From Marmoricola sp. (lineage in GTDB: Bacteria; Actinomycetota; Actinomycetes; Propionibacteriales; Nocardioidaceae), in NCBI GenBank assembly GCA_035699145.1, contig DASSBB010000076.1:18815-82814 (forward strand): DNA of 64,000 nt. The letters run 5' to 3'. A model generated the notes under the pieces. It had not been told where the DNA came from and did no database searches. It was given only the letters and a program-made list of their open reading frames with translations. This document shows, in pieces, positions 3,463 to 20,667 of this stretch (position 1 is the stretch's first letter; each line of letters starts with the position of its first letter). The position numbers and the translations under genes were made by a program.

Positions 3463-3652
3463 CGCTCCCGAGCGTGGGGGCCTCAGGGCCGCTACGAGAA
3501 GGGCCGGAGGTCGCGGAAGCGTCAGGGCCATCAGCCAGTGGCTCAGGTCAGTGTCGACGAGGAACGCGCTGCCCTCGGCTTCGTGACGGGCTCGGCCACG
3601 CGGTGGCCGCCTGCGCCTTTCCCGTGGCGGAGCAACATGGTGTGATGCTTGC

Positions 3653-4351
3653 GTGGACCACGCCGGGGCGTTCCCCGCGACCGAGAACCTCGCAGCGCTG
3701 CTGCTGCTGGCGGACGGACGCTTCCCGGCCGGCGGGTACGCCCACTCCGGTGGTCTCGAACCGGCCATCGGTGCCGGCCGAGTGCGCGACCTCGCGACGC
3801 TGGAGGCGTTCCTCGAGGGGCGTGCCGCGACGGCGGGGTTCCTCGCCGCCACCTTCGCGGCCGCAGCCTGTGGCGCCTTCGCGGAATCGGACGACTCCCG
3901 ACTCGACGCCCTGCACCCGGAGCTGGACGCCCGGATCCCCTCGCCGGCACAACGGGCGACGTCACGCCAGCTCGGACGCCAGCTGCTCCGGGCGATGCAG
4001 ACGATCCGCCCCCACCCGAGGTTCGGCCAGCTCGGACCGGCCCCGCACCAACCGATCGCGCTCGGCGCCGCGGTCGCCTCGTTCGGCCTGGGGCCGCGCG
4101 AGGCCGCCATGGTCGCGCTGCACGAGTCCACCGCAGGGCCTGCCGCTGCGTCGGTGCGGCTGCTGAGCCTCGACCCGTTCAGCACCCATGCCTGTCTGGC
4201 CAGGCTCGGCGCACGGCTGGACGTGCTCGCGGACGAAGCAGTCGCATCGAGCGGCGATGACCTCGATGACCTGCCGGCGGCGGGGACTCCGCTCCTCGAC
4301 ATCTCGGCTGAGCGCCACGCGACCGCAGCGATGCGGCTGTTCGCATCATGA
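3653..4351 (+). CDS. ureF: Urease accessory protein UreF
   Basis: 232 aa. LLLLADGRFPAGGYAHSGGLE is the conserved UreF N-terminal motif. Its stop overlaps the next ORF start (ATGA). Confidence 0.85.
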   Translation: MDHAGAFPATENLAALLLLADGRFPAGGYAHSGGLEPAIGAGRVRDLATLEAFLEGRAATAGFLAATFAAAACGAFAESDDSRLDALHPELDARIPSPAQRATSRQLGRQLLRAMQTIRPHPRFGQLGPAPHQPIALGAAVASFGLGPREAAMVALHESTAGPAAASVRLLSLDPFSTHACLARLGARLDVLADEAVASSGDDLDDLPAAGTPLLDISAERHATAAMRLFAS

Positions 4352-5292
4352 GCACCGACGAAGCGCTCGCGTCCGGGCATCGTCCCCTCTCGTTGACCGA
4401 GCCGGTCGCGGTCGGTGGGCCCACCAGAGGCACGACCGCGGGGATGCGCGCCCGAGCGCACCTGGCGACACAGCTCCGCACGACGGCCGGTGGAGGGCGA
4501 CGCAGCTGCGTGTCGACGCTTCGGTCGGAGGCGCCGTTGGTGCTCCGGCCCACCAGGCCGACGGCAGCCGAGTCGTGGTCCGCTGTCGCGTCGGATGCCG
4601 TCCAGGTCTCCTTGGCGGCCGGGGCCGCCGGGCCCGTGGGGGGTGACCACCTGATCTTGGAGATCGATGTCGGCGAAGGCAGCTCGCTCGTGCTGTCGGA
4701 GGTCTCACCCACGCTGCTGCTGCCGGGACCGCACGGACGGCGGTCCCGCACCGACGTACGGATCACCGTGGCCGAGGGCGGCACCTTGATCTGGCTGCCC
4801 GAACCGGTCATCGCCGCCCGCGCCTGCGACCACCTCAACGACGTCCGCGTGCACCTCGACGACGGGGCCCGGCTCCTCATGCGCGAGGAGGTCCTGCTGG
4901 GCCGGCACGGTGAGCCCGGCGGACGCGTCGCCCAGCGGGTCAGCGTACGGCTCGCCGGTCGGCCGCTGCACCGCCAGGACCTCGTCCACGGGACGCCCGT
5001 CTCGACCACGCCCGCGGTGACCGGTGGGCACCGGGCGGTCGGGTCGGTCCTCGTCGTGGACCCCGACTGGGTGGAGCGACCACCAACCGTGCGACAGGTC
5101 GACGGCGAGGCCGCGTTGCTTCCCCTGACCGGCCCCGCGGCACTGGTCACCGCCCTCGCCGGCGACAACCTCCAGCTGCGGCGCCGACTGGCTGCGGGGC
5201 TGGCCGAGCTCGGGCCGCCGTGGGGTCGGAACGGTGGCCCGACCATGGACATCTGCACGTCACGAGCACCAGGAGGACGCGTTGAGCGATGA
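4348..5292 (+). CDS. ureD: Urease accessory protein UreD/UreH
   Basis: Carries [46 protein letters not shown] and [16 protein letters not shown], the characteristic UreD blocks. The start is uncertain; a later Met at residue 33 is possible. Confidence 0.75.
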
Positions 5293-6103
5293 GACCAGGC
5301 AAGGGACCACTCCCGAGGCATCCCCGAGCGGCACGAGCGGCAGGGCGTTGCGTCTGGGGGTGGCCGGGCCCGTCGGCACCGGGAAGAGCTCGCTGATCGC
5401 GACCGTGTGCCGCGCCTTGGCCGATGAGCTGAGCCTGGCGGTCATCACCAACGACATCTACACCGACGAGGACGCCCGGTTCCTCCGCTCCGCCGGAGTG
5501 CTGCCCGGTGAACGGATCCGTGCGGTGGAGACCGGAGCTTGCCCGCACACGGCGATCCGTGACGACATCACGATGAACCTGCTCGCCGTGGAGGACCTCG
5601 AACGTGACTTCGCGCCCGTCGACATCGTCCTCGTCGAGAGCGGCGGGGACAACCTCACCGCGACGTTCTCCCCGGGGCTGGTGGACGCCCAGCTCTTCGT
5701 GCTCGACGTGGCCGGCGGCGGCGACGTCGCTCGCAAGGGCGGTCCCGGCATCGCCCGCGCCGACCTGCTGGTCATCAACAAGACCGACCTCGGCCCCCAC
5801 GTCGACGTCGACGTCGACCAGATGGTCGCCGACGCGACCGCCGCACGCAACGGTGGGCCGGTGCTCGCGCTCTCCCGGAAGGACGAGGCGTCGGTCCAGG
5901 AGCTCTGTGCGTGGGTGAGGTGGATGCACCAGCAGCACATCGAGGGCAAGCACACGCCGAGCGACCCTGACCCGATGGCGCCGCACTCGCACCCGCGCGC
6001 GGCCTCGACGACCCCGACCAGCACCGCCGTCGACGACGGCACCGTGCCGGACAAGCAGCTGTGGCGGTGGAAGGACGACGGCGGGGCGTTGCCGCCGTCG
6101 TAG
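5234..6103 (+). CDS. ureG: Urease accessory GTPase UreG
   Basis: Carries the P-loop [17 protein letters not shown] and NKTDL, the UreG signature blocks. An alternative TTG start at 5282 would remove most of the overlap with ureD. There is a C-terminal tail of about 50 aa beyond the usual UreG end. Confidence 0.85.
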
Positions 6104-6158
6104 ATCGCGTTCGGATCGAGCCACTCGGCAACACCGCGTCGGCGCGCGGGCGGAATGG

Positions 6159-6563
6159 TCAGCCGACCACGGCGAGCGCGTCGATCTCGACGAGCATGGC
6201 CTCGTTCGGCAGCTGGGTCATCACTGTCGTCCGGCAGGGCAGCCGGCCGCTCGGCACGTTCTCTCGGACGAACTCGCCGTACGCCTCGTTCATCGCGGCG
6301 AAGTCGTCGCGGGTGGTGAGGTACACACGGAACATCACGACGTCCTCCACGCTGGCACCGCCGGCCTCGAGGATCGCCTTGACGTTGTCGAGCACACGAT
6401 GGGTCTGCACGCGCACGTCGCCGGCGCCGATGTACTCGTTGGTCCCCGGGTCTACGGGTCCCTGTCCACTGACCTGAAGCAGCCCGCCCTTGGTCACCCC
6501 CTGGCTGAAAGTGTGCGCGGGAGCGGGGGCCGAGGACGTGCTGACGACGGTCTTGGTGGTCAT
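6159..6563 (-). CDS. ridA: RidA/YjgF family reactive enamine-imine deaminase
   Basis: 134 aa with typical RidA layout: APAPAHTFSQGV...LQVSGQ...VDPGT, then C-terminal CRTTVMTQLPNEAMLVEIDALAV. It has an ATGA overlap with the upstream IclR gene. Confidence 0.8.
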   Translation of the reverse strand: MTTKTVVSTSSAPAPAHTFSQGVTKGGLLQVSGQGPVDPGTNEYIGAGDVRVQTHRVLDNVKAILEAGGASVEDVVMFRVYLTTRDDFAAMNEAYGEFVRENVPSGRLPCRTTVMTQLPNEAMLVEIDALAVVG

Positions 6564-7333
6564 GAGGTGAGCTCCTTGTCGTGGTTGAGGTCCGGCTGCC
6601 AGCCGAAGTCTTGGGAGATCGCCGTGGTCACTTCGAGCAGGTCGGGCAGCAGGTTCAGCAGCTGGTCGTAGGTGAGGACGACGTCGGGGACCGAGACCGA
6701 CACCGCTGCCACGGTGCGCCCCGAGGCGCCGCGCACGGGCGCCGCGATGCAGTTGATGGACGGCTCGTTCTCCTCACGGTCGTGCGCCCACCCCTGTTGC
6801 CGGACGGCGTCGAGCTCCGCGAGCAGGGTGTCCGGGTCCGTGATCGTGTTCGGGGTCGTCGGGCTCATCGAGAGGTGGGACACGATGTCTGTGCGTTCGG
6901 CCTCGGGGAGGTCCGCGAGGAGGACCTTGCCGACCGCTGACGAGTGCAACGGGGGATGCAGTCCGATGCGGGAGTACATGCGGATCTGGTCGTGCGACTC
7001 CAGCTTGTCGATGTACACCGCCTCGCCGTCCTCGAGCACCGCGAGGTGGGTGGTGCGACCGTGCTTCCGGTTGAACGCGGCGAGGTGCGGGCCGGCGACG
7101 CGCCGTACCTCTCGTTGGTCCAGTGCGCGTGAGGAGAGCTCGAAGACGCGTGATCCCAGGTAGAAGCGATGGCTGCTGTCACGCACGACGAACTGCTCCT
7201 GGGCGAGGGTTCGCAACAGTCGCAGCACGGTCGTCTTGTGGACGCCGGTGGCGGCTGCAAGCTCGTCGAGGTTGGCCGGTCCGTCCCCCAGCTGGATCAG
7301 GATCTGCAGCGCCCGGCCGACGCTCTGGCTCAC
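6560..7333 (-). CDS. IclR family transcriptional regulator
   Basis: GTG start at 7333, overlapping the kinase stop (GTGA). It has an N-terminal winged HTH (SVGRALQILIQLGDGPANLDELAAATGVHKTTVLRLLRTL) and a C-terminal IclR effector domain (HSSAVGKVLLA..., NCIAAPVR). Confidence 0.85.
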   Translation of the reverse strand: MSQSVGRALQILIQLGDGPANLDELAAATGVHKTTVLRLLRTLAQEQFVVRDSSHRFYLGSRVFELSSRALDQREVRRVAGPHLAAFNRKHGRTTHLAVLEDGEAVYIDKLESHDQIRMYSRIGLHPPLHSSAVGKVLLADLPEAERTDIVSHLSMSPTTPNTITDPDTLLAELDAVRQQGWAHDREENEPSINCIAAPVRGASGRTVAAVSVSVPDVVLTYDQLLNLLPDLLEVTTAISQDFGWQPDLNHDKELTS

Positions 7334-8397
7334 CGGTCGGCTCCGTCTGGGGTGCGGGTCGTGACACCGGATGCGGTCACGATGGCCGCTGCCCACTCGG
7401 CCGGCGTGGCGTTCAGGAGGTGCTGGACGCCTGCCAGGTCGGCGGCGGCTGAATCGCCCGTGACGGTGAGGACCACTGCGGCGCTGAGGTGGCCACGACG
7501 CAGGCATCGGCGCGTCTCCTCGCCGCGCACCCGCCCCGCGAGGAACCCCGCCGCGAACGCGTCGCCGGCGCCGACCGGCTCCACCACCTCCACGCTGAGG
7601 GCAGGTTCCTCCACAACAGTCCCGTCCCGGGCCACTGCCACCGCTCGACGTGCGCCGTCCTTCACGATGAGCAGCTCGGGACCCGGGAGCATCGCGCGCA
7701 GGGACGTCGGGTCGTCGGTGCCGAACACACGGATGGCCTCGTCGGCGCCGACCAGCACCGTGTCCGCCAGGCCGGCGAGCTCGACCACGGTGCTCGGGTC
7801 GCCACCGGGCCAGAGCTGCTCACGCCAGTTCACGTCGAAGCAGATCTGTGCGTCCCACTCACGCGCTCGATGCAGCAGAGCACGCATGAGCTGGGCGCAG
7901 GACGCCGAGAGTGCGGGATTGATGCCGCTCGTGTGGATCACCGTGGCTCGTGACAGCACCGCGTCGACGTGAGGCTCGTCGAGGAGCTCCGGGCCCATCG
8001 CAGAGGCTGCCGAGCTGGCCCGACGATAGCGAACCCGAGTGCTCGGCTCGCCGTGTTCGTCTCGTTCGACCAGCTTGGCGTACGAGCCCGTCGGTCGGTC
8101 GGGGTCCCGTTGCACCGCGCTGACGTCCACTCCGTGCCGCTTCAAGTCGGCGTACAGCAGGTCCCCGAGCCAGTCCGCGCCAAGGCGGCCTATCCAGGAC
8201 GCCGGGACGCCCATCGCCGCCAACGCGGCGGCGACGTTGGCCTCGGCGCCGGCGAGCGTCCCTGCCACGGGTGGGCCGACGGGCGCGTCGGTGGCCGGCG
8301 AGCGGGTATCGGCCTCGTCTGGCAGTGCGGGGAGCAGCACGAGCGCCTCTCCCAGGCAGGCCACCGACCCCAGGTGTTGCTCCGCGGGGCTACGCAT
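7330..8397 (-). CDS. kdgK: PfkB family sugar kinase, 2-dehydro-3-deoxygluconokinase-like
   Basis: 355 aa. The PfkB C-terminal signature is VEPVGAGDAFAAGFLAG. Context: a KDPG aldolase sits in the divergent operon. Confidence 0.7.
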   Translation of the reverse strand: MRSPAEQHLGSVACLGEALVLLPALPDEADTRSPATDAPVGPPVAGTLAGAEANVAAALAAMGVPASWIGRLGADWLGDLLYADLKRHGVDVSAVQRDPDRPTGSYAKLVERDEHGEPSTRVRYRRASSAASAMGPELLDEPHVDAVLSRATVIHTSGINPALSASCAQLMRALLHRAREWDAQICFDVNWREQLWPGGDPSTVVELAGLADTVLVGADEAIRVFGTDDPTSLRAMLPGPELLIVKDGARRAVAVARDGTVVEEPALSVEVVEPVGAGDAFAAGFLAGRVRGEETRRCLRRGHLSAAVVLTVTGDSAAADLAGVQHLLNATPAEWAAAIVTASGVTTRTPDGADR

Positions 8398-8518
8398 CGG
8401 CGACAGGTCCTCCTCAGATGACGACAGGGGCGCCGGAACGCCGGCGATCGAAGTCGTGGCGCCGGGTGGATCGTTGACGCCGCTCTGCGACCGATGCTAC
8501 AACAGATGACGCAGCCTA

Positions 8519-8534
8519 TGCAACGCGCGTTGCG
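8519..8534. promoter_or_regulatory. Candidate operator palindrome in the kdgK / deaminase divergent promoter region
   Basis: GCAACGCGCGTTGC (8520..8533) is a perfect 14-bp palindrome. The half-site TGCAAC/GTTGCA recurs at 8540..8545 and 8564..8569, between the divergently transcribed operons and next to an IclR gene. Confidence 0.4.
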
Positions 8535-8590
8535 CAGGCTGCAACTTCAACCGTGGGGCGACCGTTGCACTGGTTGCCAGGAAGGCCGGC

Positions 8591-9931
8591 ATGACCCTCG
8601 AACCCTCAGGCAGAACGCTGGACCCACGCGTCATGGCGCGGCTCTCCAAGGTGACCTTGACCGGCATGGAGAAGTCGATGCCGCACAGAGCCGCGGGGCA
8701 CGACGTCGGAGGCTTCCTGGCGTCCTCGCCCCGGCTCTCGGAGTTCAGCACACCGCTTCTCGTGCTGACCGACCTCGAGCTGGAGCACAACCTCACCGTG
8801 ATGTCGGAATGGTGCGCCGGGCGGGGCCTCGGCCTCGCGCCGCATGGGAAGACGACGATGGCCCCGGCGCTGTGGGAGCGGCAGCTCGCAGCCGGGGCCT
8901 GGGGCATCTCGCTCGCCACGCCGAGCCAGCTACGGGTGGCCGTGGAGTTCGGCGTCCGCCGGATCCAGCTGGCCAACGCCCTGGTCGACCCGCCGTCGCT
9001 GAGGTGGGTGAGCAGCCGCCTCGACGACGACCCCGAGCTACAGATCCTCAGCTGGGTGGACTCGCCGGAGACCGTGGCGGCCATGGAAGGCGTGCTCGCG
9101 GAGCTCTCGCCCCAGCGTCCACTGACCGTGCTGATCGAGCTCGGCGCGCCGGGTGGACGCACCGGAGCCCGGACCGTGGAAGAAGCGAAGCACGTCGCGA
9201 GGGCGGTCTCGTCGAGCCGCTGGCTGCGCCTGGCCGGCGTCAGCGGCTACGAGGGCGCGCTGGCGCACGATGCGTCGGACGCCGGACTGCACGCCGTACG
9301 TGGATACCTGGAACAGCTCGCGGCGCTGCACCGGTCGCTGCTGGCGGACGGCGAGTACGCCGGCGTCGACGACCTCGTCGTGACGGCCGGCGGGAGCGCC
9401 TACTTCGACGAGGTCGCCGACGCGCTCGGCCCGCTCGCCGACCCAGAAGGCGCATCGGGTCCGCGCTGCTCGGTCCTCCTGCGCTCCGGCGCCTACATCA
9501 TCCACGACGACGGCTTCTACCGGATGATTTCTCCCCTGGGCCGCACTCCTGGACAGACTCCCCTCCGCTCGGCCATGCACGCCTGGGCGCGCGTGGTGTC
9601 CCGCCCCCAGCCCGGTCTCGCCCTCCTGGACGCCGGGAAGCGCGACGTACCGTTCGACGAGGGACTCCCGGAGCCTCAGCTGTACGCCGACCAGCTGGGA
9701 TCCCCGACCAAGCCCCTCACCGGTGCCCGCGTCACCGCGGTGAACGACCAGCACGCATTCCTCGAGCTCGATCCCGACGGCTCGGGTGCCGACCTCCGCG
9801 TGGGCCAGGTCGTCCGGCTCGGCCTCTCCCACCCGTGCACGGCGTTCGACAAGTGGCGGATGATCCCCGTGCTACCCGACAGCGACGGGGACGACCCCGT
9901 GGTCGTCGACCTTGTCCAGACCTTCTTCTGA
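8591..9931 (+). CDS. PLP-dependent amino acid deaminase/dehydratase of the alanine-racemase-fold (D-serine dehydratase-like, DSD1/D-threonine aldolase) family
   Basis: 446 aa. GLAPHGKTTMAP holds the PLP-lysine context. The architecture is an N-terminal racemase-like barrel plus a C-terminal beta domain (LGLSHPCTAFDKW). A GGAAGG RBS precedes ATG 8591. Confidence 0.65.
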   Translation: MTLEPSGRTLDPRVMARLSKVTLTGMEKSMPHRAAGHDVGGFLASSPRLSEFSTPLLVLTDLELEHNLTVMSEWCAGRGLGLAPHGKTTMAPALWERQLAAGAWGISLATPSQLRVAVEFGVRRIQLANALVDPPSLRWVSSRLDDDPELQILSWVDSPETVAAMEGVLAELSPQRPLTVLIELGAPGGRTGARTVEEAKHVARAVSSSRWLRLAGVSGYEGALAHDASDAGLHAVRGYLEQLAALHRSLLADGEYAGVDDLVVTAGGSAYFDEVADALGPLADPEGASGPRCSVLLRSGAYIIHDDGFYRMISPLGRTPGQTPLRSAMHAWARVVSRPQPGLALLDAGKRDVPFDEGLPEPQLYADQLGSPTKPLTGARVTAVNDQHAFLELDPDGSGADLRVGQVVRLGLSHPCTAFDKWRMIPVLPDSDGDDPVVVDLVQTFF

Positions 9932-9944
9932 GCAGGGAGCACAG

Positions 9945-11552
9945 ATGCGCACCCTCATCCTGGCCGCGACCGTGGTCGACGGCACCGAGGCACCGAGGTA
10001 CGTCGCCGATGTCCTGGTCGACGGCGACCGGATCGCCGACATCCGCCCGGGCGGAGGCGCGGTTCCCCAGGCCGACCGCGTCATCGAGGCCGACGGCCTC
10101 GTCCTGACGCCAGGGTTCATCGACATGCACGCACACTCAGACCTGCAGCTGCTGCTGGATCCTGCGCACCTGGCCAAGGTGAGCCAGGGCGTCACCACGG
10201 AGCTCCTGGGTCAGGACGGGCTCTCCTATGCGCCCGTCGACGACGTCACGCTCGGCAAGGTGCGCAAGAAGATCGCCGGCTGGAACACCGACCCGGCCGA
10301 CTTCGACTTCTCGTGGCGGTCGATCGGTGAGTACCTCGACCGTCTCGACCAGGGCATCGCCACCAACGCGGCCTACCTGGTCCCGCACGGCGTCGTCCGC
10401 GCGCTCGTCGTGGGCTGGGACGACGTTCCCGCGAGCGACACCCAGATTCAGGAGATGCAAGAAGTCATCTCCGACGGCATGCTGCAGGGCGCCGTCGGCC
10501 TCTCGATGGGGCTGACCTATACCCCGGGGATGTACGCCGACCGGTCCGAGCTGGTCGCACTGTGCCGTACGGTCGCCTCGCTCGGCGGGTTCTTCGCACC
10601 TCACCACCGTTCGTACGGCAAGGGCGCCCTCGAGGCGTACGCCGAGATGGTCGACGTCGCTCGGGAGTCCGGGTGTGCGTTGCACCTGTCGCACGCGACC
10701 ATGAACTTCGCGCCTAACAAGGGCCGCGCCCCGGAGCTGCTCGCGCTCATCGACGAGGCGGTCGCGGACGGTGTCGACGTCAGCCTCGACACCTACCCCT
10801 ACCTTCCGGGCGCGACCACGCTGTCCGCCGTCCTGCCGAGCTGGGCCTCGGCGGGCGGCCTCGAGCCGACGCTGGACCGGCTGCGCGACCCCGCCAGCCT
10901 CGCCAGGATCCGGCAGGACCTGGAGGTCAACGGCTCCGACGGCTGCCATGGCGTGGTGGCCGAGTGGGACACGATCGAGCTCAGCGGCGTGACGCACGAG
11001 GAGCTTCACGACCTGGTCGGGCGCACGATCGCCGAGATCGCCGCGGAGGACGGTCGCGAGCCGTTCGAGGTGTTCGTCGACGTCCTGGTCCGTGACGAGC
11101 TCGCGACGGGGATCCTCCAGCACGTCGGTCACGAGGAGAACGTGCGCGCGATCATGCAGCACAGCCGGCACACCGGCGGGAGCGACGGTCTGCTGGTCGG
11201 GGCGAAGCCGCACCCGCGAGCCTGGGGCACGTTCCCGCGGTACCTCGGCCACTACACCAGGGACCTCGGCCTGTTCTCGCTCGAGGAGTGCGTCGGGCAC
11301 CTCACCGGCCGGGCGGCCCGCCGGCTGGGGCTGCGGGACCGCGGGCTGGTCAGGACCGGGTACGCCGCCGACCTGGTCCTGCTCGACCCGGGCACGGTCG
11401 CCGACACCGCCACCTTCGAGCGTCCGAGGCAGCCGGCAGCGGGCATCCGCCACGTCTTCGTCAACGGTGAGCCGGCGATCGAGGAGGGGCGGCGCACCGA
11501 GGCCGTCGCCGGTCGGGCGCTGCGCCGGGTCTCCGAAGGGACGGTCGTGTGA
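9945..11552 (+). CDS. N-acyl-D-amino-acid deacylase (D-aminoacylase) family amidohydrolase
   Basis: ATG 9945 with a GGGAG RBS. Carries VLVDGDRIADI, then the metal motif GFIDMHAHSD, and a typical D-aminoacylase C-terminus (DLVLLDP...ATFERP...GIRHVFVNG). Confidence 0.8.
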   Translation: MRTLILAATVVDGTEAPRYVADVLVDGDRIADIRPGGGAVPQADRVIEADGLVLTPGFIDMHAHSDLQLLLDPAHLAKVSQGVTTELLGQDGLSYAPVDDVTLGKVRKKIAGWNTDPADFDFSWRSIGEYLDRLDQGIATNAAYLVPHGVVRALVVGWDDVPASDTQIQEMQEVISDGMLQGAVGLSMGLTYTPGMYADRSELVALCRTVASLGGFFAPHHRSYGKGALEAYAEMVDVARESGCALHLSHATMNFAPNKGRAPELLALIDEAVADGVDVSLDTYPYLPGATTLSAVLPSWASAGGLEPTLDRLRDPASLARIRQDLEVNGSDGCHGVVAEWDTIELSGVTHEELHDLVGRTIAEIAAEDGREPFEVFVDVLVRDELATGILQHVGHEENVRAIMQHSRHTGGSDGLLVGAKPHPRAWGTFPRYLGHYTRDLGLFSLEECVGHLTGRAARRLGLRDRGLVRTGYAADLVLLDPGTVADTATFERPRQPAAGIRHVFVNGEPAIEEGRRTEAVAGRALRRVSEGTVV

Positions 11553-12205
11553 ACACTCAAGCCACGAGCCTTCTCGACGTGCTGCGCGAGGACCGCGTGC
11601 TCAGCGTCGTACGTGCCGACCGGATTCCCGACGCCGCCGAGCTGTGCCGTGCGCTCACGGCGGGCGGGATCCGCATCGTGGAGCTGACGTTCACGACGCC
11701 GGACGTGCTGACCCACGTGCGGCGGGCGGCCGCGGCCGCCGACAGCACCGGGGCGGTCGTCGGCGTGGGCACCGTGATGACCGCGGCCCAAGCCGGTGCC
11801 GCCATCGATGCCGGGGCGCGGTTCCTGGTCACCCCCGGCCTGCGCCCCGACGTGGCGAAGGAGGCGGTCAGGCGAGGTGTCCCGGTGTTCCTCGGCGCCT
11901 TCACGCCGTCCGAGGTGGCGCAAGCGGTCGACCTCGGCTCGGCAGCGGTCAAGATCTTCCCCGCCGGCCAGCTGGGCCCGAAGTACCTCAAGGACCTGCA
12001 CGGCCCCTACCCCGACGTGTCCCTGCTGCCCTCAGGCGGGATCAGCGAGGAGAACGCCCCGTCGTTCCTCGACGCCGGCGCGCTCGCAGTCTGCGCCGGC
12101 ACCAGCGTCGTCCCTCCCGCCTCCGTCGCCTCCGCTGCATGGCATGACGTCACCGACCGGGCCCGCCGGTTCGTGGCCGCACTGACCCCCCCTCCAGGCC
12201 GATAG
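11549..12205 (+). CDS. eda: 2-dehydro-3-deoxyphosphogluconate (KDPG) / 4-hydroxy-2-oxoglutarate aldolase
   Basis: 218 aa. Carries IVELTFTTP, GVGTV and the catalytic Lys context AVKIFPA. The GTG start overlaps the previous stop (GTGTGA). Confidence 0.8.
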   Translation: MNTQATSLLDVLREDRVLSVVRADRIPDAAELCRALTAGGIRIVELTFTTPDVLTHVRRAAAAADSTGAVVGVGTVMTAAQAGAAIDAGARFLVTPGLRPDVAKEAVRRGVPVFLGAFTPSEVAQAVDLGSAAVKIFPAGQLGPKYLKDLHGPYPDVSLLPSGGISEENAPSFLDAGALAVCAGTSVVPPASVASAAWHDVTDRARRFVAALTPPPGR

Positions 12206-12216
12206 GAGCCACACCC

Positions 12217-13773
12217 ATGGGAACCTTCGTCGACTGGCTGCAGAACGACACAGCCGGCTTGCTCACTCTCGCTGCGCTCAGCATCGTGGTGCTGCTCGTT
12301 GCCATCATCCGGTTCAAGATCGAACCCTTCATCGTGCTGCTCATCGTCGGCATCCTCGTCGCCCTCGCAGCGGGCTTGCCCATCGTCGACCTCGTCGGGA
12401 CGCCCACCACCGCGGGCGAGTCGCTCCTCGAAGTCGGGTTCGCCGGCATCCTCGGCCACATCACACTGATCATCGGGCTCGGCACCGTGCTCGGCGCGAT
12501 CATGGAGCGCTCCGGCGGCGCCGACGTACTCACCAGCAAGCTGCTGCACCTTTTCGGGCCCAAGGGCGCCCCGCTCGCGATGGGCCTGACCGGCCTCATC
12601 CTGGGCATCCCCGTCTTCTTCGACATCGGCATCTTCGTGCTCGCCCCCCTCGTCTACGTGGCCGCCAAGCGCGGCGGCCGGTCGCTGGTCCTCTACGCGA
12701 TGCCGATGCTCGCCGGCCTGTCGGTCACCCACGCGTTCCTGCCGCCCCACCCTGGCCCTGTCGCTGCCAGCGGGCTGCTCGGCGTGAGCCTGGGGTGGAT
12801 CATCGTCATCGGTGCCGTCTGCGGAATCCCGGCATGGTTGGTCGCAGGCGTCTGGTGGGGCTCCTTCATCGGCAAGCGGGTGCACATCGAGGTGCCGGAC
12901 GAGTTCATCTCTGCCGAGCTCGAAGGGCACCAGTCTGAGGTCTTCGATGGGCATGACGGAGGGCTGACCAGCGACGACCCGTCCGCAGCCGGTCGAGCCG
13001 AGTCCGCCCGCCCGACCCCCGGGGCAAGCCGCTCGATGGTCCTCGATGACACCGCGGAGCCGGTCCGCGATCCCGTGACCACGTCCCGGACCGCACTACC
13101 GCCCCCATCGCTCGGCCTGGTCGCGCTCGTGATCCTGGTCCCGATGGTGCTGATCCTCGGGGCGACCGTCGGGAGCGTCACGCTGGACGACGGCTCGGAC
13201 CTGCGTCAGCTGCTGATCTTCCTCGGCACACCGGCGATCGCGCTCACCATCGCCGTTCTGCTCGCGCTGTGGCTGCTCGGCACGCGCCGCGGCATGACCA
13301 CGACCGAGCTCGGCCACATCAGCGGAGAGTCCCTCAGGCCGATCGGGATGATCCTCCTCGTCGTCGGTGCGGGAGCCTTCTACGGCGCCGTCCTCCGCGC
13401 CACCGGCATCGGGGACGCGGTCGCCAGCTCGATGGAGGCCGGGGGGCTCCCCGTCATCCTGTCGGCGTACCTCATCAGCTGCGCACTACGGCTTGCCCAA
13501 GGCTCTGCCACGGTCGCCATCGTGACCACGGCCGGCATCATCCAGCCCGTGCTCGAGGGGACCAGCTACTCGCAGGCGCAGATCGCGGTCATCGTGATCG
13601 CTATCTCGGCCGGCTCGATCATCGCCAGCCACGTCAACGACGGCGGCTTCTGGATCATCGCCAAGTACTTCAACATGTCGGTCAAGGAGACCCTGCTGAC
13701 GTGGACGGTCCTGGAGACCATCCTGTCGGTCGTGGGGTTCCTTGCGGCCTCGGTGGTCTGGCTCATCGTCTAG
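12217..13773 (+). CDS. GntP family (gluconate:H+ symporter-like) permease
   Basis: 518 aa, polytopic. The conserved GntP C-terminal block is SHVNDGGFWIIAKYFNMSVKETL. It has an unusually long hydrophilic central loop (residues ~235-295). A TAGGAG RBS is present. Confidence 0.8.
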   Translation: MGTFVDWLQNDTAGLLTLAALSIVVLLVAIIRFKIEPFIVLLIVGILVALAAGLPIVDLVGTPTTAGESLLEVGFAGILGHITLIIGLGTVLGAIMERSGGADVLTSKLLHLFGPKGAPLAMGLTGLILGIPVFFDIGIFVLAPLVYVAAKRGGRSLVLYAMPMLAGLSVTHAFLPPHPGPVAASGLLGVSLGWIIVIGAVCGIPAWLVAGVWWGSFIGKRVHIEVPDEFISAELEGHQSEVFDGHDGGLTSDDPSAAGRAESARPTPGASRSMVLDDTAEPVRDPVTTSRTALPPPSLGLVALVILVPMVLILGATVGSVTLDDGSDLRQLLIFLGTPAIALTIAVLLALWLLGTRRGMTTTELGHISGESLRPIGMILLVVGAGAFYGAVLRATGIGDAVASSMEAGGLPVILSAYLISCALRLAQGSATVAIVTTAGIIQPVLEGTSYSQAQIAVIVIAISAGSIIASHVNDGGFWIIAKYFNMSVKETLLTWTVLETILSVVGFLAASVVWLIV

Positions 13774-13918
13774 TCATCAGCTCCACGGAGACTCAGCCGC
13801 GCGGCACCAGCCCCCTCCATGATGCGTCGCCGTCTTGGCCATGCTGGTGTGCGTCGAGACGCTGAACGCCAGAGGTTCGACGAGCAGGATGGCCCGGGAC
13901 CTCACGTCGCACGGAAGG

Positions 13919-14569
13919 CTAGGACTCCACGAGGGCCACGAGGGAATGCAGGTCCTTGAAGACGTCGGTGACCCCCGCCGTTCTCAGTGCGTCCGCGGGC
14001 CAGGTGGTGGTCACGCCGTAGACGCGGCCCACCTCTGCGGCAACCGCGGCAGCCACGCCGGCCGGAGAGTCTTCCACCGCGATCGCGTGCTCAGGCGCTG
14101 CGTTCAGCAGTTCACACGCATGGCGGTAGCACATGGGGTCGGGCTTCCCGTCCCTGACGTCGTCGGCCGTGACGACAACCTCCACGAATTGACGTACTCC
14201 CAGCGAATCCATGGTGAGCTCAGCCCAGTCGAGAGTCGCAGAGGTGACGATCGCCACCCGGACTCCCGCGGCGGCGGCAGCCGTGATCAGCTCCGCCCCG
14301 CCGGAAACAGGCGGGGGGCGGACATCGGGATCGACATGAGCGACCACTGCATCGCGAAGGACCGCCGGGTCCTCACCCACCCAGGGCCCCGGGTCGGTTG
14401 CGAAGACATCCTCGGCTCGACGACCCGTGAACCTGCTGAGCAGCGCCTCGTCGTAGGGCCACCCCCGCCGGGCGAAGTACGCGCGGTAGGCCGCGCGATG
14501 CATCTGCTCGGAGTCGATCAACGTGCCATCAAGGTCCAGGAGCAGCGCGGATGTCGTCATCGCCCACAC
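13919..14569 (-). CDS. HAD superfamily hydrolase (beta-phosphoglucomutase-like subfamily IA)
   Basis: Motif I is LLDLDGTLIDSE, motif II is VTSA, and motifs III/IV are GKPDP...AVEDSPAG. Confidence 0.8.
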   Translation of the reverse strand: MWAMTTSALLLDLDGTLIDSEQMHRAAYRAYFARRGWPYDEALLSRFTGRRAEDVFATDPGPWVGEDPAVLRDAVVAHVDPDVRPPPVSGGAELITAAAAAGVRVAIVTSATLDWAELTMDSLGVRQFVEVVVTADDVRDGKPDPMCYRHACELLNAAPEHAIAVEDSPAGVAAAVAAEVGRVYGVTTTWPADALRTAGVTDVFKDLHSLVALVES

Positions 14570-14782
14570 AACCCCTCGCGATCGCGGAGGCTACCATCGT
14601 CGGCGCTCAGGCCCGGATGGATGATGGCGCCACCTCCGTTCTTCTGGTCGCCCTTCCTCGACAGATTGCCACACTTTTCTCCGTCGGATACCCGCTCAGG
14701 GGGGCAGGACATGGCCGTCGGCCCGTGCCAGGATGGCCGAAGCGGGCCCATGTCACCCGATGGCACAACCCAGGAGGACCGA

Positions 14783-16915
14783 ATGAGCTCCACCACGGTG
14801 ACGTCGAAGAGGTCGGGGCTGCGGGTGCCCGGCTTCGCCCAGCTGCAGCGTTTCGGCAAGAGCCTCATGCTGCCGATCGCGCTGCTCCCCGCTGCCGGCA
14901 TCCTGTTGCGGCTCGGTCAGGACGACCTGCTGGGCGACATCGACACCCCGGTCATCGGACCGTTCTTCGACGCGATGACGGCGGCGGGTGGCGCGATCTT
15001 CGCGAACCTGCCCCTGCTGTTCGCCGTCGGGGTGGCGATCGGCATGGCCAAGAAGGCCGACGGGTCCACCGCCCTCTCCGCGGTCGCCGGATACCTCGTG
15101 ATCGACGCGGTCTTCGACGCCATGTCACCGATCGTCCTGGCAGGCGAGGTCGACACGGCAGGCAACCAGCTGCTGATCAACTACAGCGTCTTCGCCGGCA
15201 TCGCGGTCGGCCTGGTGACAGCGGTGTTGTACGACCGGTACCACACCATCGAGCTGCCGGCGTACCTCGGCTTCTTCGGCGGCCGTCGTTTCGTCCCCAT
15301 CGTCGTGTCCCTGGCCACCCTGTTCCTGGGCTTCGTCCTGAGCTACCTCTACCCGCTCTTCGAGAACGGTCTGACCTCGACGGGCGAGTTCATCGGCGCG
15401 TCGGGTGCCTTCGGCGCCTTCCTCTACGGGTTCATCAACCGGATGTTGATCCCGCTCGGCTTGCACCACATCGTCAACACCTACGTGTGGTTCATCTACG
15501 GCGACTATGAGACCGCGGACGGCGTGGTCACCGGCGAGCTCACCCGGTTCGCCTCCGGCGACGTCGCTGCGGGCCAGCTCACCTCAGGGTTCTACCCGAT
15601 CCTGATGTTCGGACTTCCCGGCGCCGCGCTGGCCATGATCCACGTCGCCAGGCCCAGGCAGAAGAAGGTCGCTATCGGGATCCTGTCGGCTGCCGCGCTC
15701 ACCGCCTTCGTCACCGGGATCACCGAACCGCTCGAGTTCGCGTTCATGTTCGTGGCGTTCCCGCTGTACGTCATCCATGCGCTCCTGACTGGCGTGTCAC
15801 TGGCGGTGGCCTACATGCTGGACATCCACCTCGGCTTCTCGTTCTCCGCGGGGCTCATCGACCTCATCCTCTACGGCACGGCACCCGCGGCCCAGAACGT
15901 TCCGCTGCTCATCGCGATGGGGTTGGTCTTCTTCGCCCTGTACTACGTGTTGTTCCGGTTCGCGATCGTGCGGTGGAACATGCGCACGCCCGGACGCGAG
16001 CCCGACGAGGAGTTCGAGGCCGAACAGGCTGCCAACCTGTCTGACCCGTCCGGTGGCCGGACGACCACCGGCGCCGTAGGAGCACCCCAGCACAAGGCCG
16101 AGCAGCTGATCGCCGCCTTCGGTGGCCGGGACAACCTCCTCAACGTCGACGCTTGCATCACCCGCCTGCGGATCGAGGTCGCCGACAAGGCCCAGGTCAA
16201 CCAGTCGCGGCTCAAGGCACTGGGCGCTGCGGGCGTGATCGAGGTGGGAAACAACGTCCAGGCTGTTTTCGGTACCCAGGCCGACGCCCTGAAGAGCGAC
16301 ATCAACAGCGTGCTGGCGGGTACGCCCCCGGAACAGCTCAACAGCACCGCCGAGACGGCGGCGGCCACGGCGGCCAGCACCGCTACAGCTGACGTCGCAG
16401 CCGCCGCGCATCCTGCGGCGCAGGCTCCGCGATCAGTGGTTGCTCCGGTCCCGGGCCGGCTCGTGGCGCTGGAGAACGTCCCCGATGCGACCTTCGCGAA
16501 AGGGATCGTCGGGGCGGGTCTGGCGATCGACCCGCCGCGAGCGGTCGTGGACGCGGTCGCACCCGTCAGCGGCGAAGTCATGAAGCTGTGGCCGCACGCC
16601 TACGTGATCATGACCTCCGACAAGGTGGGGGTCCTCGTGCACCTGGGGCTGGACACCGTCCAGCTCAACGGTGAAGGGTTCACCGTACTCGTCGAGGAGG
16701 GCGGCCAGGTGGAGGTCGGCCAACCGATGATCACCTACGACGTTCCCAGGGTCGAGGCGACCGGCCGTGATCCGGTCATCCCGATCGTGGTGATGGACAA
16801 GAAGGCCACCATCGACATGATCGCGACACCGGAGACACAAGTGGCGGTTCTCGACGAGATCTTCACCGTCTTGCCTGCTGCCAGCGCTACTGGCGCGACG
16901 AAACCCGAGCAGTAG
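14783..16915 (+). CDS. nagE: PTS N-acetylglucosamine/glucose family EIICBA component
   Basis: ATG 14783 with an AGGAGG RBS. Domains are an EIIC membrane domain, an EIIB Cys site (NVDACITRLRIEV), an Ala/Pro linker, and an EIIA His region (VLVHLGLDTVQLNGEGF). It is followed directly by nagB and nagA. Confidence 0.85.
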   Translation: MSSTTVTSKRSGLRVPGFAQLQRFGKSLMLPIALLPAAGILLRLGQDDLLGDIDTPVIGPFFDAMTAAGGAIFANLPLLFAVGVAIGMAKKADGSTALSAVAGYLVIDAVFDAMSPIVLAGEVDTAGNQLLINYSVFAGIAVGLVTAVLYDRYHTIELPAYLGFFGGRRFVPIVVSLATLFLGFVLSYLYPLFENGLTSTGEFIGASGAFGAFLYGFINRMLIPLGLHHIVNTYVWFIYGDYETADGVVTGELTRFASGDVAAGQLTSGFYPILMFGLPGAALAMIHVARPRQKKVAIGILSAAALTAFVTGITEPLEFAFMFVAFPLYVIHALLTGVSLAVAYMLDIHLGFSFSAGLIDLILYGTAPAAQNVPLLIAMGLVFFALYYVLFRFAIVRWNMRTPGREPDEEFEAEQAANLSDPSGGRTTTGAVGAPQHKAEQLIAAFGGRDNLLNVDACITRLRIEVADKAQVNQSRLKALGAAGVIEVGNNVQAVFGTQADALKSDINSVLAGTPPEQLNSTAETAAATAASTATADVAAAAHPAAQAPRSVVAPVPGRLVALENVPDATFAKGIVGAGLAIDPPRAVVDAVAPVSGEVMKLWPHAYVIMTSDKVGVLVHLGLDTVQLNGEGFTVLVEEGGQVEVGQPMITYDVPRVEATGRDPVIPIVVMDKKATIDMIATPETQVAVLDEIFTVLPAASATGATKPEQ

Positions 16916-16924
16916 GAGACCACG

Positions 16925-17710
16925 ATGGAAGTCGTCATCCTCGACGGAGCGGAGGCGATCGGGAAACTGGCCGCGGACGCCGTTGCCGACCTCCTGGGAC
17001 ACAGGCCGGACGCGGTGCTCGGTCTGGCGACCGGCTCATCCCCCCTGGCGGTCTACGACGAGCTGGCGCGGCGCTGTGCGGCTGGAGAGGTGTCCTTTGC
17101 GGGTGCCCGCGGGTTCACCCTCGACGAGTACGTCGGGCTCGAGGCCACCCACCCGGAGCGCTACCGCAACGTCATCGACAAGGACTTCGTCTCCCGAGTC
17201 GACTTCGTACCGGGGGCGGTCCAAGGTCCCGACGGGCTGGCGGAGGACATCCCGGCTGCATGCGCGGCGTACGAGGAGGCCATCGCCGAGGCAGGCGCGG
17301 TGGACCTGCAGATCCTGGGGATAGGGACCGATGGGCACATCGGCTTCAACGAGCCGGGCTCCTCGTTGGCGTCGCGGACCCGGATCAAGACTCTGACGCA
17401 GCAGACGCGGCTCGACAACGCCCGGTTCTTCGACGGCGATCTCGAGGCGGTCCCCACCCACTGCCTCACCCAGGGGCTGGCCACGATCATGTCGGCTCGC
17501 CACGTGCTGCTCGTTGCGACCGGTCAGGGGAAGGCCGAAGCGGTGCACCACCTGGTCGAAGGAGCGGTGAGCGCACTGTGGCCGGCGACCATCCTGCAGC
17601 ACCACCCGCACGCCACCGTGCTGTTGGACGAGGCGGCCGCGGGTCGATTGCAGCTGGCTTCGTACTACCGGGACACCTTCCGTGGGAAGCCTGCGTGGCA
17701 AGGCATCTGA
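16925..17710 (+). CDS. nagB: Glucosamine-6-phosphate deaminase
   Basis: 261 aa. Carries GLATGSSP and ILGIGTDGHIGFNEPGS, the NagB signatures. Confidence 0.9.
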   Translation: MEVVILDGAEAIGKLAADAVADLLGHRPDAVLGLATGSSPLAVYDELARRCAAGEVSFAGARGFTLDEYVGLEATHPERYRNVIDKDFVSRVDFVPGAVQGPDGLAEDIPAACAAYEEAIAEAGAVDLQILGIGTDGHIGFNEPGSSLASRTRIKTLTQQTRLDNARFFDGDLEAVPTHCLTQGLATIMSARHVLLVATGQGKAEAVHHLVEGAVSALWPATILQHHPHATVLLDEAAAGRLQLASYYRDTFRGKPAWQGI

Positions 17711-17738
17711 GGGGCATCCGAAGGGTTCCGGGCCGGGT

Positions 17739-18875
17739 GTGCTGATCACTGCCGACGCCGTCGTCACCGGTACGGCGGTGCTGCGACCCGGCTGGTTCCA
17801 GGTGGTCGGCAGGCGCCTGGTCGGCCTGGGCGCCGGTTCGCCACGCCGACCCGCCGACGTATCCCTGGGTGACGCGACGGTCGTCCCGGGCTTTGTCGAC
17901 ATGCACGTCCACGGAGGTGGGGGCGGGTCATTCTCGGAGGCCTCCGCCGAGGGAACCCGCCGTGCCGTTGAGCTGCATGCCCGACACGGGACCACCACGA
18001 TGGTTGCATCACTGGTCTCGGCGCCTCCCGAAGAGCTGTTGCGGCAGGTGGGTGTGCTGGCTGAGCAGGTGGAGGAGGGGCTCGTGGCGGGCATCCACCT
18101 TGAAGGCCCGTGGCTTGCACCGGGCAGGCGTGGCGCGCACGACGCCTCGGCCCTGCGCGACCCGCACCCCGCGGAGATCGATCGCGTTCTCAGGGCCGGT
18201 CGCGGGACCATCCGCATGGTGACCCTTGCTCCCGAGCTCGACGGGGCCCACGAGGCGATCAAGAGGGTCGTCGGCGCCGGCTCCGTCGCCGCGGTCGGGC
18301 ACACCGACGCCACCTACCAGCAGACCCGCGCGGCCATCGCGGCCGGCGCCACTGTCGGCACGCACCTGTTCAACGCGATGCGTCCGGTGCACCACCGCGA
18401 GCCCGGACCGGTGGTAGCACTGCTCGAGGACCCGCGCGTCACGGTCGAGCTGATCGCCGACGGCGTACACCTCGATGCAGCCCTCGCTCGCCACGTGTGG
18501 GACAGCGCCGGCATCGACCGGGTCACCCTGGTCACCGACGCCATGGCCGCAGCCGGGATGCCCGACGGTGAATACCGGCTCGGGGCGCTACCCGTCCGTG
18601 TCGCCGACGGCGTCGCAACGGTCGCCGGCACCACCACGATCGCCGGCAGCACCGCCACCATGGACGAGCTCTTCCGGTACGCCGTCCTCCACTGCAACCG
18701 CGATCAGGACACCGCCCTCGTCGCGGCGGCGCGGCTGACCTCCATCAACCCAGCACGTGCACTAGGACTGCCTGAACCCGCGATGACCGAAGGCGCTTCC
18801 GCCGACCTCGTCGTCCTGGACGCAGCGTTGACGGTGACCGCGGTCATGCGGCGCGGGACCTGGGCCACTCCTTGA
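17739..18875 (+). CDS. nagA: N-acetylglucosamine-6-phosphate deacetylase
   Basis: Carries GFVDMHVHGGGGGSF and HLEGPWL, then GHTDATY, the NagA motifs. The start is uncertain: GTG 17739 is chosen, while track start 17682 would overlap nagB by 29 nt. Confidence 0.85.
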   Translation: MLITADAVVTGTAVLRPGWFQVVGRRLVGLGAGSPRRPADVSLGDATVVPGFVDMHVHGGGGGSFSEASAEGTRRAVELHARHGTTTMVASLVSAPPEELLRQVGVLAEQVEEGLVAGIHLEGPWLAPGRRGAHDASALRDPHPAEIDRVLRAGRGTIRMVTLAPELDGAHEAIKRVVGAGSVAAVGHTDATYQQTRAAIAAGATVGTHLFNAMRPVHHREPGPVVALLEDPRVTVELIADGVHLDAALARHVWDSAGIDRVTLVTDAMAAAGMPDGEYRLGALPVRVADGVATVAGTTTIAGSTATMDELFRYAVLHCNRDQDTALVAAARLTSINPARALGLPEPAMTEGASADLVVLDAALTVTAVMRRGTWATP

Positions 18876-18932
18876 ACGCAGCCGCATGGCCGCACTGTCC
18901 CATGCGCGAGACGCGCTCCTGTGCGGCGCGAG

Positions 18933-18949
18933 GACGCCCACGGGGCGTC
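18933..18949. terminator. Candidate bidirectional terminator hairpin between convergent nagA and ureC
   Basis: GACGCCC-ACG-GGGCGTC is a perfect 7-bp GC-rich stem in the 79-nt convergent intergenic region. There is no U-tract. Confidence 0.35.
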
Positions 18950-18954
18950 GCCGA

Positions 18955-20659
<1,705 letters not shown>

Positions 20660-20667
<8 letters not shown>

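Follow-up and report, generated by a model that had tools for sequence, protein, structure and literature searches.

The window analysed here is a 64,000-nucleotide stretch of contig DASSBB010000076.1 of Marmoricola sp. (GCA_035699145.1), with a G+C content of about 70%. At positions 6159-13773 it carries a seven-gene cluster that probably forms a self-contained, IclR-controlled unit for the catabolism of an N-acyl-2-amino-2-deoxy-aldonic acid. The likeliest substrate is N-acetyl-D-glucosaminate (GlcNAc1A), a C1-oxidised product of chitin, and free D-glucosaminate (GlcN1A) would be used as well. The broader statement, that the pathway strips the acyl group from an N-acyl amino-sugar acid, deaminates the product to a keto-deoxy acid and splits this with Entner-Doudoroff enzymes, can be made with good confidence.

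From the gene set, we infer the following sequence of steps. GlcNAc1A would be imported by the GntP permease, and its acetyl group would be removed by a D-aminoacylase-fold amidohydrolase, yielding D-glucosaminate. A pyridoxal 5'-phosphate (PLP) enzyme of fold type III would then eliminate the C3 hydroxyl, and the resulting enamine/imine would be hydrolysed, with the help of RidA, to 2-keto-3-deoxygluconate (KDG) and ammonia. A PfkB kinase would convert KDG to 2-keto-3-deoxy-6-phosphogluconate (KDPG), which Eda would cleave into pyruvate and glyceraldehyde-3-phosphate. The IclR regulator, bound to GCAAC-N4-GTTGC, would repress both operons of the cluster until released by a pathway intermediate.

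This route resembles the ong pathway of Pseudoalteromonas prydzensis, in which OngB deacetylates GlcNAc1A, OngC converts GlcN1A to KDG by deamination, the RidA protein OngD cannot be dispensed with, and KDPG is formed by KdgK (PMC9537276). The original prediction, made from the DNA letters alone, had named a route from GlcNAc1A through GlcN1A to KDG; that route exists, and it is the ong pathway (PMC9537276). As in the ong cluster of P. prydzensis ACAM 620, a D-aminoacylase-fold deacetylase, a fold-III PLP deaminase, a RidA protein and a KDG kinase are clustered, and the substrate would be treated as a D-amino acid and would not be phosphorylated beforehand. The genes were identified by Pfam and NCBIfam profile searches, complemented by sequence comparisons with the Protein Data Bank (PDB), and the cluster comprises the following features.

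6159-6563, minus strand: ridA, RidA-family enamine/imine deaminase, putative OngD counterpart (PF01042 Ribonuc_L-PSP, 105 bits)
6560-7333, minus strand: iclR, IclR-family regulator (HTH_IclR and IclR_C), starting at the GTG of a GTGA overlap
7330-8397, minus strand: kdgK-like PfkB kinase (PF00294; best solved relative 1v19), exact start uncertain
8520-8533, no strand: candidate IclR operator, palindrome GCAACGCGCGTTGC, within the 193-bp divergent intergenic region
8591-9931, plus strand: fold-type III PLP enzyme, D-serine-dehydratase-like (PF01168 Ala_racemase_N and PF14031 D-ser_dehydrat, both above cut-off)
9945-11552, plus strand: D-aminoacylase-fold amidohydrolase (Amidohydro_3; 535-aa protein), hereafter the deacylase
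11549-12205, plus strand: eda, KDPG aldolase (TIGR01182, 190.3 bits; cut-off 156.05)
12217-13773, plus strand: gntP, GntP-family sugar-acid:H+ symporter (PF02447, 405 bits; TIGR00791, 370 bits; cut-off 292.75)

The seven genes form two divergent units, the kinase, iclR and ridA genes on the minus strand and the PLP enzyme, deacylase, eda and gntP genes on the plus strand. Direct reading of the sequence showed that the iclR stop and the ridA start share an ATGA (6560-6563), that the kinase stop and the iclR start share a GTGA (7330-7333), and that the deacylase stop and the eda start share another GTGA (11549-11552). The ATG of the deacylase (9945) is preceded by GGGAG 7 nt upstream. Gene content, coordinates and overlaps (ATGA and GTGA) thus all agree with what the original prediction had given.

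The same gene set recurs widely. A scan of one genome per species gave at least 600 pattern matches and at least 599 confirmed relatives, and the counts given here refer to the best 80 of these at least 599 loci. All 80 belong to Actinomycetota, including Pseudonocardia, Rhodococcus, Mycobacterium, Arthrobacter, Tsukamurella, Nocardia, Amycolatopsis, Streptomyces, Kitasatospora and others. The divergent layout recurs in every one of them (80/80), the single genes being less complete: the PLP gene directly precedes the deacylase gene in 78 loci, and the other partners found are ridA (73), iclR (71), the kinase gene (68), gntP (57) and eda (38). This arrangement is far from chance. Among 251 genomes drawn evenly across the phylum, the deacylase is present in 8, which include all five sampled genomes of one genus with genomes of 7.5-9.2 Mb, and named Streptomyces proteins of the deacylase clade are very numerous.

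The regulatory region is conserved together with the genes. The 193-bp region between the kinase and PLP genes contains the perfect palindrome GCAACGCGCGTTGC (8520-8533) and two further half-sites, TGCAAC at 8540-8545 and GTTGCA at 8564-8569. Of the 67 kinase/PLP intergenic regions of related loci, 61 contain GCAAC-N4-GTTGC when up to one mismatch is allowed, where shuffled sequences lead one to expect 0.45. In the 3.6-Mb genome, the strict motif has three copies, with about three expected by chance; the other two lie on contig C5 (5801 and 87478), and the one at 87478, inside an open reading frame, looks like a chance occurrence. The palindrome is most simply taken as the operator of the cluster IclR, a pairing that we infer from their co-conservation, and IclR is probably a repressor of both divergent operons. 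The NCBIfam models nearest to the IclR protein, BhcR and KdgR, both scored under their cut-offs. No DasR box was found in the window.

With regard to the lower part of the pathway, the best solved relative of the kinase is the KDG kinase of T. thermophilus (1v19, 127 bits). The kinase scored under the cut-off of all NCBIfam equivalog models, the top one being that of the bifunctional kinase of KDG and 2-keto-3-deoxygalactonate (KDGal), at 158 bits against a cut-off of 440. The aldolase, which passes TIGR01182, scored 114 bits with the model of the 2-keto-3-deoxy-6-phosphogalactonate (KDPGal) aldolase, under the cut-off of 207. As the kinase is a KdgK-like PfkB protein and Eda lies above the TIGR01182 cut-off, the gluco configuration is favoured, and the kinase is predicted to turn KDG into KDPG. 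In addition, the cluster kinase has no other close copy and the cluster eda is the only eda in the 3.6-Mb genome, which indicates that the kinase and the aldolase exist for this pathway. GntP is predicted to import the amino-sugar acid, its family not revealing the substrate. The window GntP has 518 residues, against about 440-465 in the family model and in Tsukamurella, and its Pfam match is split into two stretches, which points to an insertion of about 60-70 residues in the central loop.

The PLP enzyme is assigned, on its sequence, to the 3gwq/ong-type subfamily of fold type III. In the PDB search it scored 231 bits against 3gwq and at most 82 bits against the D-threonine aldolases, and it lies far from the latter and from the hydroxyaspartate enzymes. 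Entry 3GWQ is a structural genomics model of a Burkholderia xenovorans protein named 'D-serine deaminase', with its function untested; it is about 40% identical to the window enzyme and belongs to a proteobacterial branch. The score of 598 bits between 3gwq and the PLP enzyme of an ong-type cluster of Ralstonia indicates that these two are close relatives. The window enzyme, 3gwq and the Ralstonia enzyme have in common the PHGKT motif, with the PLP-binding lysine, and the SHPC motif, of the His-x-Cys type, which marks dehydratases rather than aldolases. Its predicted activity is that of a D-glucosaminate ammonia-lyase forming KDG, which would make the PLP enzyme of the window the counterpart of OngC. 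In a midpoint-rooted tree, the actinobacterial PLP enzymes form their own clade, apart from the ong-type PLP enzymes, so that orthology with OngC is not established by the tree. Subclades of the PLP tree match those of the deacylase tree.

Homologues of the PLP enzyme with about 40% identity are also found on plasmids of Klebsiella variicola (L001), Pantoea dispersa (L087) and Pseudomonas silvicola (L088). There they sit in operons with IclR, RidA and a polar-amino-acid ATP-binding cassette (ABC) importer, and without deacylase or kinase. These operons are probably a catabolic unit for beta-hydroxy-D-amino acids, and their PLP enzymes are weakly sister to the actinobacterial clade.

With regard to the deacylase, the PDB search gave 294 bits (E 2e-86, in two segments) against the D-aminoacylase of A. 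faecalis (AfDam) and 223 bits, at about 35% identity, against the P. prydzensis OngB (PpOngB); the NCBIfam model PRK09061 matched with 193 bits, under its cut-off of 340. Residues were mapped with the printed PDB alignment and with a MAFFT alignment including OngB-type and other relatives; P. prydzensis OngB was compared through the PDB alignments, and the OngB-type cluster of Ralstonia served as proxy. The window enzyme keeps the HxH motif, both metal-binding histidines, the catalytic aspartate (GSDG), two tyrosines, a leucine and the arginine of PHPRxWG; full-length similarity to characterised D-aminoacylases (EC 3.5.1.81) is thus accompanied by the catalytic aspartate.

Other positions of the catalytic site are changed. 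The metal-bridging Cys96 is replaced by an aspartate throughout the actinobacterial clade (GQDGLS, compared with GNCGIS in OngB), and the carboxylate-binding Lys252, equivalent to Lys254 of OngB, is replaced by a threonine (LSHATMNF). The three serines of OngB (Ser290-292) correspond to Gly-Ala-Thr-Thr (YPYLPGATT), with an alanine at the Ser291 equivalent. Threonine, asparagine and valine stand at the positions of the OngB residues Ala193, Ala256 and Gly348, and the specificity loop with Gln298 of OngB gives way to an insertion of about 55 residues. Phe191 and Met254 of the hydrophobic pocket of AfDam correspond to threonine and asparagine, and the pocket stays polar.

The anchors of the acetamido and carboxylate groups have been called strictly conserved in OngB and the D-aminoacylases, and Ser290, Ser292 and Gln298, together with the small residues Ala193, Ala256 and Gly348, are the sugar binders specific to OngB (PMC12017989). 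Of the anchor set (Tyr194, Lys254, Tyr285, Ser291, Asp368, Leu370, Arg379), the window enzyme has an incomplete version, with threonine for the lysine and alanine for the serine, and it does not have the subtype V Cys/His/His metal site that defines the OngB family. In the deacylase tree, which was built without the characterised cluster B D-acylases, the cluster-linked actinobacterial enzymes form one clade (99% support), joined by a very long branch to the Cys-bearing proteobacterial enzymes. By its residues, the deacylase is placed outside the OngB family as defined, in a distinct Cys-less and Lys-less actinobacterial clade. As the defining OngB residues are absent, homology cannot transfer the substrate, and the substrate claim needs another basis. 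We predict the enzyme, mainly from its gene context, to be an N-acetyl-D-glucosaminate deacetylase and a functional analogue of OngB.

Cys-less D-acylases have been described as 'cluster B', which comprises Gox1177 and the enzymes of Microbacterium natoriense and Streptomyces sp. 64E6; some have measured activity on N-acyl-D-amino acids, and their natural function has been questioned (PMC12149444). The best 120 relatives of a Streptomyces cluster deacylase, among which the 64E6 enzyme was sought, all bear generic names. The window enzyme shares with them the Amidohydro_3 fold with an insertion domain, the HxH motif, the two histidines, the catalytic aspartate, the substrate-binding tyrosine and arginine, and the lack of the bridging cysteine. 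Unlike the Cys-less relatives of Halobaculum and Bacillus, which keep the lysine, the window clade is without the carboxylate-binding lysine; unlike AfDam, it has a polar threonine and asparagine in the pocket. The clade is also locked into a sugar-acid gene context.

Within the insertion of about 55 residues, the motif GSDGCHG (window 10935-10955, residues 330-336) shows little or no variation among the actinobacterial deacylases linked to the cluster, and it is missing from the Cys-less relatives of Halobaculum and Bacillus. This motif might make up for the lost metal-bridging cysteine or the lost lysine. A metagenome contig encodes a 700-residue protein (P0022), 78% identical to the window deacylase, that also contains GntP/CitMHS permease domains. 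Either neighbouring genes have been read through, or the protein is a genuine deacylase-permease fusion.

Two features by which the window cluster departs from the P. prydzensis cluster, GntP and Eda, recur in Betaproteobacteria beside a deacylase of genuine OngB type. In clusters on megaplasmids of Ralstonia and Cupriavidus (L005, L006), the genes for an RpiR regulator, a deacylase, RidA, GntP and Eda diverge from those for the PLP enzyme and the kinase. These clusters have the same seven roles and the divergent two-operon layout; they differ from the window cluster in their OngB-type deacylase, their 3gwq-like PLP enzyme and their RpiR regulator. The Ralstonia-type deacylase scored 668 bits against KleDacyl of Klebsiella (9g5m), 551 bits against PpOngB and 452 bits against AfDam, and the alignment shows that it has the cysteine, the lysine and the three serines. 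Since an OngB-type cluster has this gene content, GntP and Eda are a natural format of the ong pathway. The gene kdgA, for KDPG aldolase, is likewise added to the ong cluster in Vibrio, Klebsiella and Serratia (PMC9537276).

Other differences from the ong system concern regulation, uptake and host. The ong cluster has a MurR/RpiR regulator (OngR) and a sodium-solute symporter of the SSS family (OngIT), where the window cluster has IclR and GntP. It also has OngA, of glycoside hydrolase family 20 (GH20), and a TonB-dependent receptor, both missing from the window genome. Co-occurrence with AA10 lytic polysaccharide monooxygenases (LPMOs) and chitinases in one genome is taken as a further mark of the ong type, and for these the window host gave no match. 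In the structure of OngB (PDB 9kb1/9kb3, PMC12017989), the bridging cysteine, Lys254 and Ser290-292 are present; the window deacylase is without these, and its insertion domain is about 55 aa larger. The dga route shares with the proposed pathway the conversion of an amino-sugar acid, through a keto-deoxy intermediate, to pyruvate and glyceraldehyde-3-phosphate. It differs in that the substrate is phosphorylated during uptake, the 6-phosphate is deaminated by an unrelated PLP enzyme, there is neither deacylase nor RidA, and control is by sigma-54. A glucosaminate pathway proposed for haloarchaea is also a different, phosphorylating route (PMC12343721).

In 14-16 of the 80 actinobacterial loci, the plus-strand operon runs on into genes for a lactonase (PF10282), a sugar ABC importer of the CUT1 type and a hexosaminidase of family GH20. 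The order in Amycolatopsis orientalis DSM 40040 is PLP enzyme, deacylase, GntP, PF10282 lactonase, CUT1 solute-binding protein, two permeases and GH20, with gaps of 2-30 bp; Saccharopolyspora, Actinokineospora and two uncultured genomes (metagenome-assembled) have the same partners in different orders. For the solute-binding protein of this extension in Amycolatopsis, the only matches were generic CUT1 ones. Together, the lactonase, an importer of oligosaccharides and the GH20 enzyme are what a cell would require to take up chitobionic acid or its lactone and release GlcNAc1A; GH20 is also the family of OngA.

Sites resembling the DasR box (core TGGTCTAGACCA) lie 58-90 bp upstream of the lactonase or binding-protein genes of some of these loci (at 12972 in L068, L072 and L085, at 13430 in L066 and at 15298 in L074), and the core TGGTCTAGACCA is perfect in three Amycolatopsis loci. 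As their total count is modestly above chance, these sites are suggestive at most. The pattern suggests a peripheral module that may belong to the N-acetyl-D-glucosamine (GlcNAc)/chitin regulon, with the core under IclR control.

In the window, the cluster is followed by genes for the conventional uptake and catabolism of GlcNAc, and both belong to a single inserted segment.

13919-14569, minus strand: HAD-family hydrolase gene (PF13419 and PF00702), between gntP and the nag operon
14783-16915, plus strand: nagE, phosphotransferase system IIABC component (NCBIfam NagE match)
16925-17710, plus strand: nagB (NCBIfam nagB match)
17682-18875, plus strand: nagA (NCBIfam nagA match)
6088-18954, no strand: accessory insertion of 12,867 bp that holds the seven-gene cluster along with the HAD and nagE-nagB-nagA genes

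In the complete genome of a member of the same genus (G015), the blastn matches to window positions 3688-6087 and 18955-19871 lie 27 bp apart, which identifies 6088-18954 as a 12.9-kb insertion. It lies between the convergent genes ureG (plus strand, ending at 6103) and ureC (minus strand, 18955-20667), and its GC content is 0.694, compared with 0.72 in the flanks. No junction repeats were seen at the island ends. None of 18 same-genus genomes gave a match for the deacylase, and none of five gave one for the HAD gene or nagE. The seven-gene cluster and the nag module are therefore one acquired segment in this genome. The urease genes themselves stand in two convergent units, one with ureD, ureG and a likely ureF upstream (3650-6103, plus strand) and one with ureC and a small upstream open reading frame (18955-21160, minus strand). 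In G015, the match to UreC covers just its C-terminal 305 residues, and the urease locus of that genome may be damaged.

The original prediction had placed nagE-nagB-nagA at 14783-18875, in agreement with the NCBIfam matches, and had read from this neighbourhood a theme of chitin-derived amino sugars. Part of that theme stands, as one 12.9-kb insertion holds both modules; the adjacency itself is not conserved, nag genes being next to the cluster in 0 of the 80 loci. The basis of the amino-sugar theme is thus the shared acquired segment and not a conserved nag neighbourhood. The LPMO and chitinase genes for which a look elsewhere in the genome had been advised are absent (PF03067 and PF00704 in a 99.3% complete assembly). 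With no chitin-cleaving enzymes of its own, the host would be a scavenger of acid released by other organisms. The island suits an organism that lives on what others set free from chitin, be it by hydrolysis (GlcNAc) or by oxidation (GlcNAc1A).

Several observations weigh against GlcNAc1A as the substrate. The deacylase is without the OngB residues said to be strictly conserved or to determine specificity (the cysteine, Lys254, Ser290-292 and the Gln298 loop), it scores higher with AfDam (294 bits) than with PpOngB (223 bits), and the Cys-less group includes proven N-acyl-D-amino-acid enzymes (PMC12149444). A carboxylate substrate gives no explanation for the loss of the carboxylate-binding lysine. 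The PLP clade is weakly sister to enterobacterial homologues beside amino-acid ABC importers and does not group with the ong-type enzymes. AA10 LPMO (PF03067), GH18 (PF00704) and GH20 genes are absent from the 99.3% complete, 3.6-Mb genome. Finally, the extension with GH20, lactonase and ABC importer is confined to Pseudonocardiaceae-type lineages; being concentrated in one family-level lineage, it amounts to few independent observations. The diverged deacylase site, the Cys-less D-acylases acting on amino acids, the position of the PLP clade and the link with GH20, lactonase and ABC importer in one lineage are the reasons why the assignment to GlcNAc1A is held no more firmly. The reading of the original prediction, with import by GntP, deacylation, deamination by the PLP enzyme, RidA, KdgK and Eda, finds support in comparative gene context, while its two key enzymes depart from those of the ong pathway: the deacylase is not OngB-type, and the PLP enzyme does not group with the ong-type PLP enzymes. 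In the sequence comparison that it had proposed as a check, the deacylase is nearer AfDam than PpOngB, and the PLP enzyme, far from D-threonine aldolases and hydroxyaspartate enzymes, is nearest to 3gwq.

These observations leave room for other substrates. The physiological substrate could be free D-glucosaminate, formed in soil when dehydrogenases or oxidases act on glucosamine or chitosan products, with a deacylase serving other or broader N-acyl groups (formyl, glycolyl, succinyl). For this, no more than GntP, the PLP enzyme, RidA, KdgK and Eda would be needed, the deacylase site is unlike the GlcNAc1A-specific site of OngB, and the host genome is without chitin-oxidising enzymes. No gene of the cluster is, however, better conserved than that of the deacylase, which lies between the PLP gene and eda and is coupled to them in translation, and the GH20 and lactonase extensions point to N-acetylated products of the LPMO type, so we consider this unlikely. 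We give a similarly low probability to an amide-linked sugar acid or lactam that does not come from chitin, in which case the likeness to ong would be a shared chemical module only. The remodelled deacylase site, with aspartate for cysteine, threonine for lysine and the conserved GSDGCHG insertion, could speak for such a compound; its product must nevertheless be a 6-carbon 2-keto-3-deoxy acid usable by KdgK and Eda, and the recurrent link with GH20, lactonase and sugar ABC importer specifically fits oxidised chitooligosaccharides.

A true D-aminoacylase combined with a D-serine/D-threonine dehydratase, acting on N-acetyl-D-serine, N-acetyl-D-threonine or N-acetyl-D-threo-3-hydroxyaspartate, would agree with the D-aminoacylase activity measured for the Cys-less Gox1177, M. 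natoriense and Streptomyces sp. 64E6 enzymes (PMC12149444), with the ability of OngC to deaminate D-Ser and D-Thr as well (PMC9537276), and with the amino-acid ABC importers, IclR and RidA that adjoin the enterobacterial PLP homologues. It leaves unexplained the conserved KDG-type kinase, the KDPG aldolase and the GntP sugar-acid permease, as well as the sole-copy kdgK and eda and the extensions with lactonase, sugar ABC importer and GH20, which makes it very unlikely. The substrate might also be another epimer, such as N-acetyl-D-galactosaminate from oxidised N-acetyl-D-galactosamine (GalNAc), degraded via KDGal. A B. pseudomallei plasmid does combine the module of deaminase, deacylase and RidA with DgoK and DgoA, Comamonas pairs it with DgoK, the top NCBIfam model of the kinase is that of a KDG/KDGal kinase, although under cut-off, and GH20 enzymes are able to release GalNAc too. 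Yet the window kinase is of a KdgK-like PfkB type and not of the DgoK type, and the aldolase passes the Eda model and fails the KDPGal-aldolase model; the probability that we assign to another epimer is accordingly very small.

Returning to GlcNAc1A, the ong pathway and OngB-like enzymes have been presented as essentially gammaproteobacterial (PMC9537276, PMC12017989), the published surveys having met the pathway almost exclusively in that class. What becomes of the aldonic-acid products, GlcNAc1A and chitobionic acid, is known in detail only for marine Gammaproteobacteria. Our literature search found no paper on GlcNAc1A catabolism in actinobacteria. The window cluster follows the ong logic with a non-orthologous or strongly diverged deacylase, another regulator and importer, and an operator that is newly defined here; for its phylum, the literature searched describes no such pathway.

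In soil, chitin is degraded mainly by actinomycetes, which produce numerous LPMOs active on chitin. Tentatively, and at somewhat less than an even chance, the cluster may be a widespread missing actinobacterial route for LPMO-oxidised chitin products, with a deacetylase independently recruited within the D-aminoacylase fold and a dedicated IclR acting on GCAAC-N4-GTTGC. If true, such a conserved actinobacterial counterpart would close a gap in the fate of oxidised chitin products, would explain why sequence searches based on OngB miss the cluster and would represent a second active-site solution for the de-N-acetylation of sugar acids. The window host would then be a scavenger form, with neither chitinase nor LPMO, whose acquired island joins GlcNAc uptake to a putative GlcNAc1A route. 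A defined operator/regulator pair would be usable for biosensing or induction studies.

Two of the related gene sets look like galacto-type variants of the module. On the B. pseudomallei plasmid NZ_CP009155.1 (L089, 6884-11718), an operon encodes an amino acid deaminase, a D-aminoacylase, RidA, DgoK and DgoA, and it lies inside a locus for glycosaminoglycan degradation with a PL8 lyase, GH88, KduD, an IolB-like protein and an ABC importer. This operon looks galacto-type, is perhaps for N-acetyl-galactosaminic acid and appears undescribed. In Comamonas odontotermitis (L094), a related set linked to DgoK is accompanied by RpiR and a peptide-type ABC importer.

Elsewhere in the window, the minus strand encodes an M6 immune-inhibitor-A-like metallopeptidase of 841 aa (46493-49018) and a protein that joins DUF429 with a RelA/SpoT-type nucleotidyltransferase domain (27821-29638).

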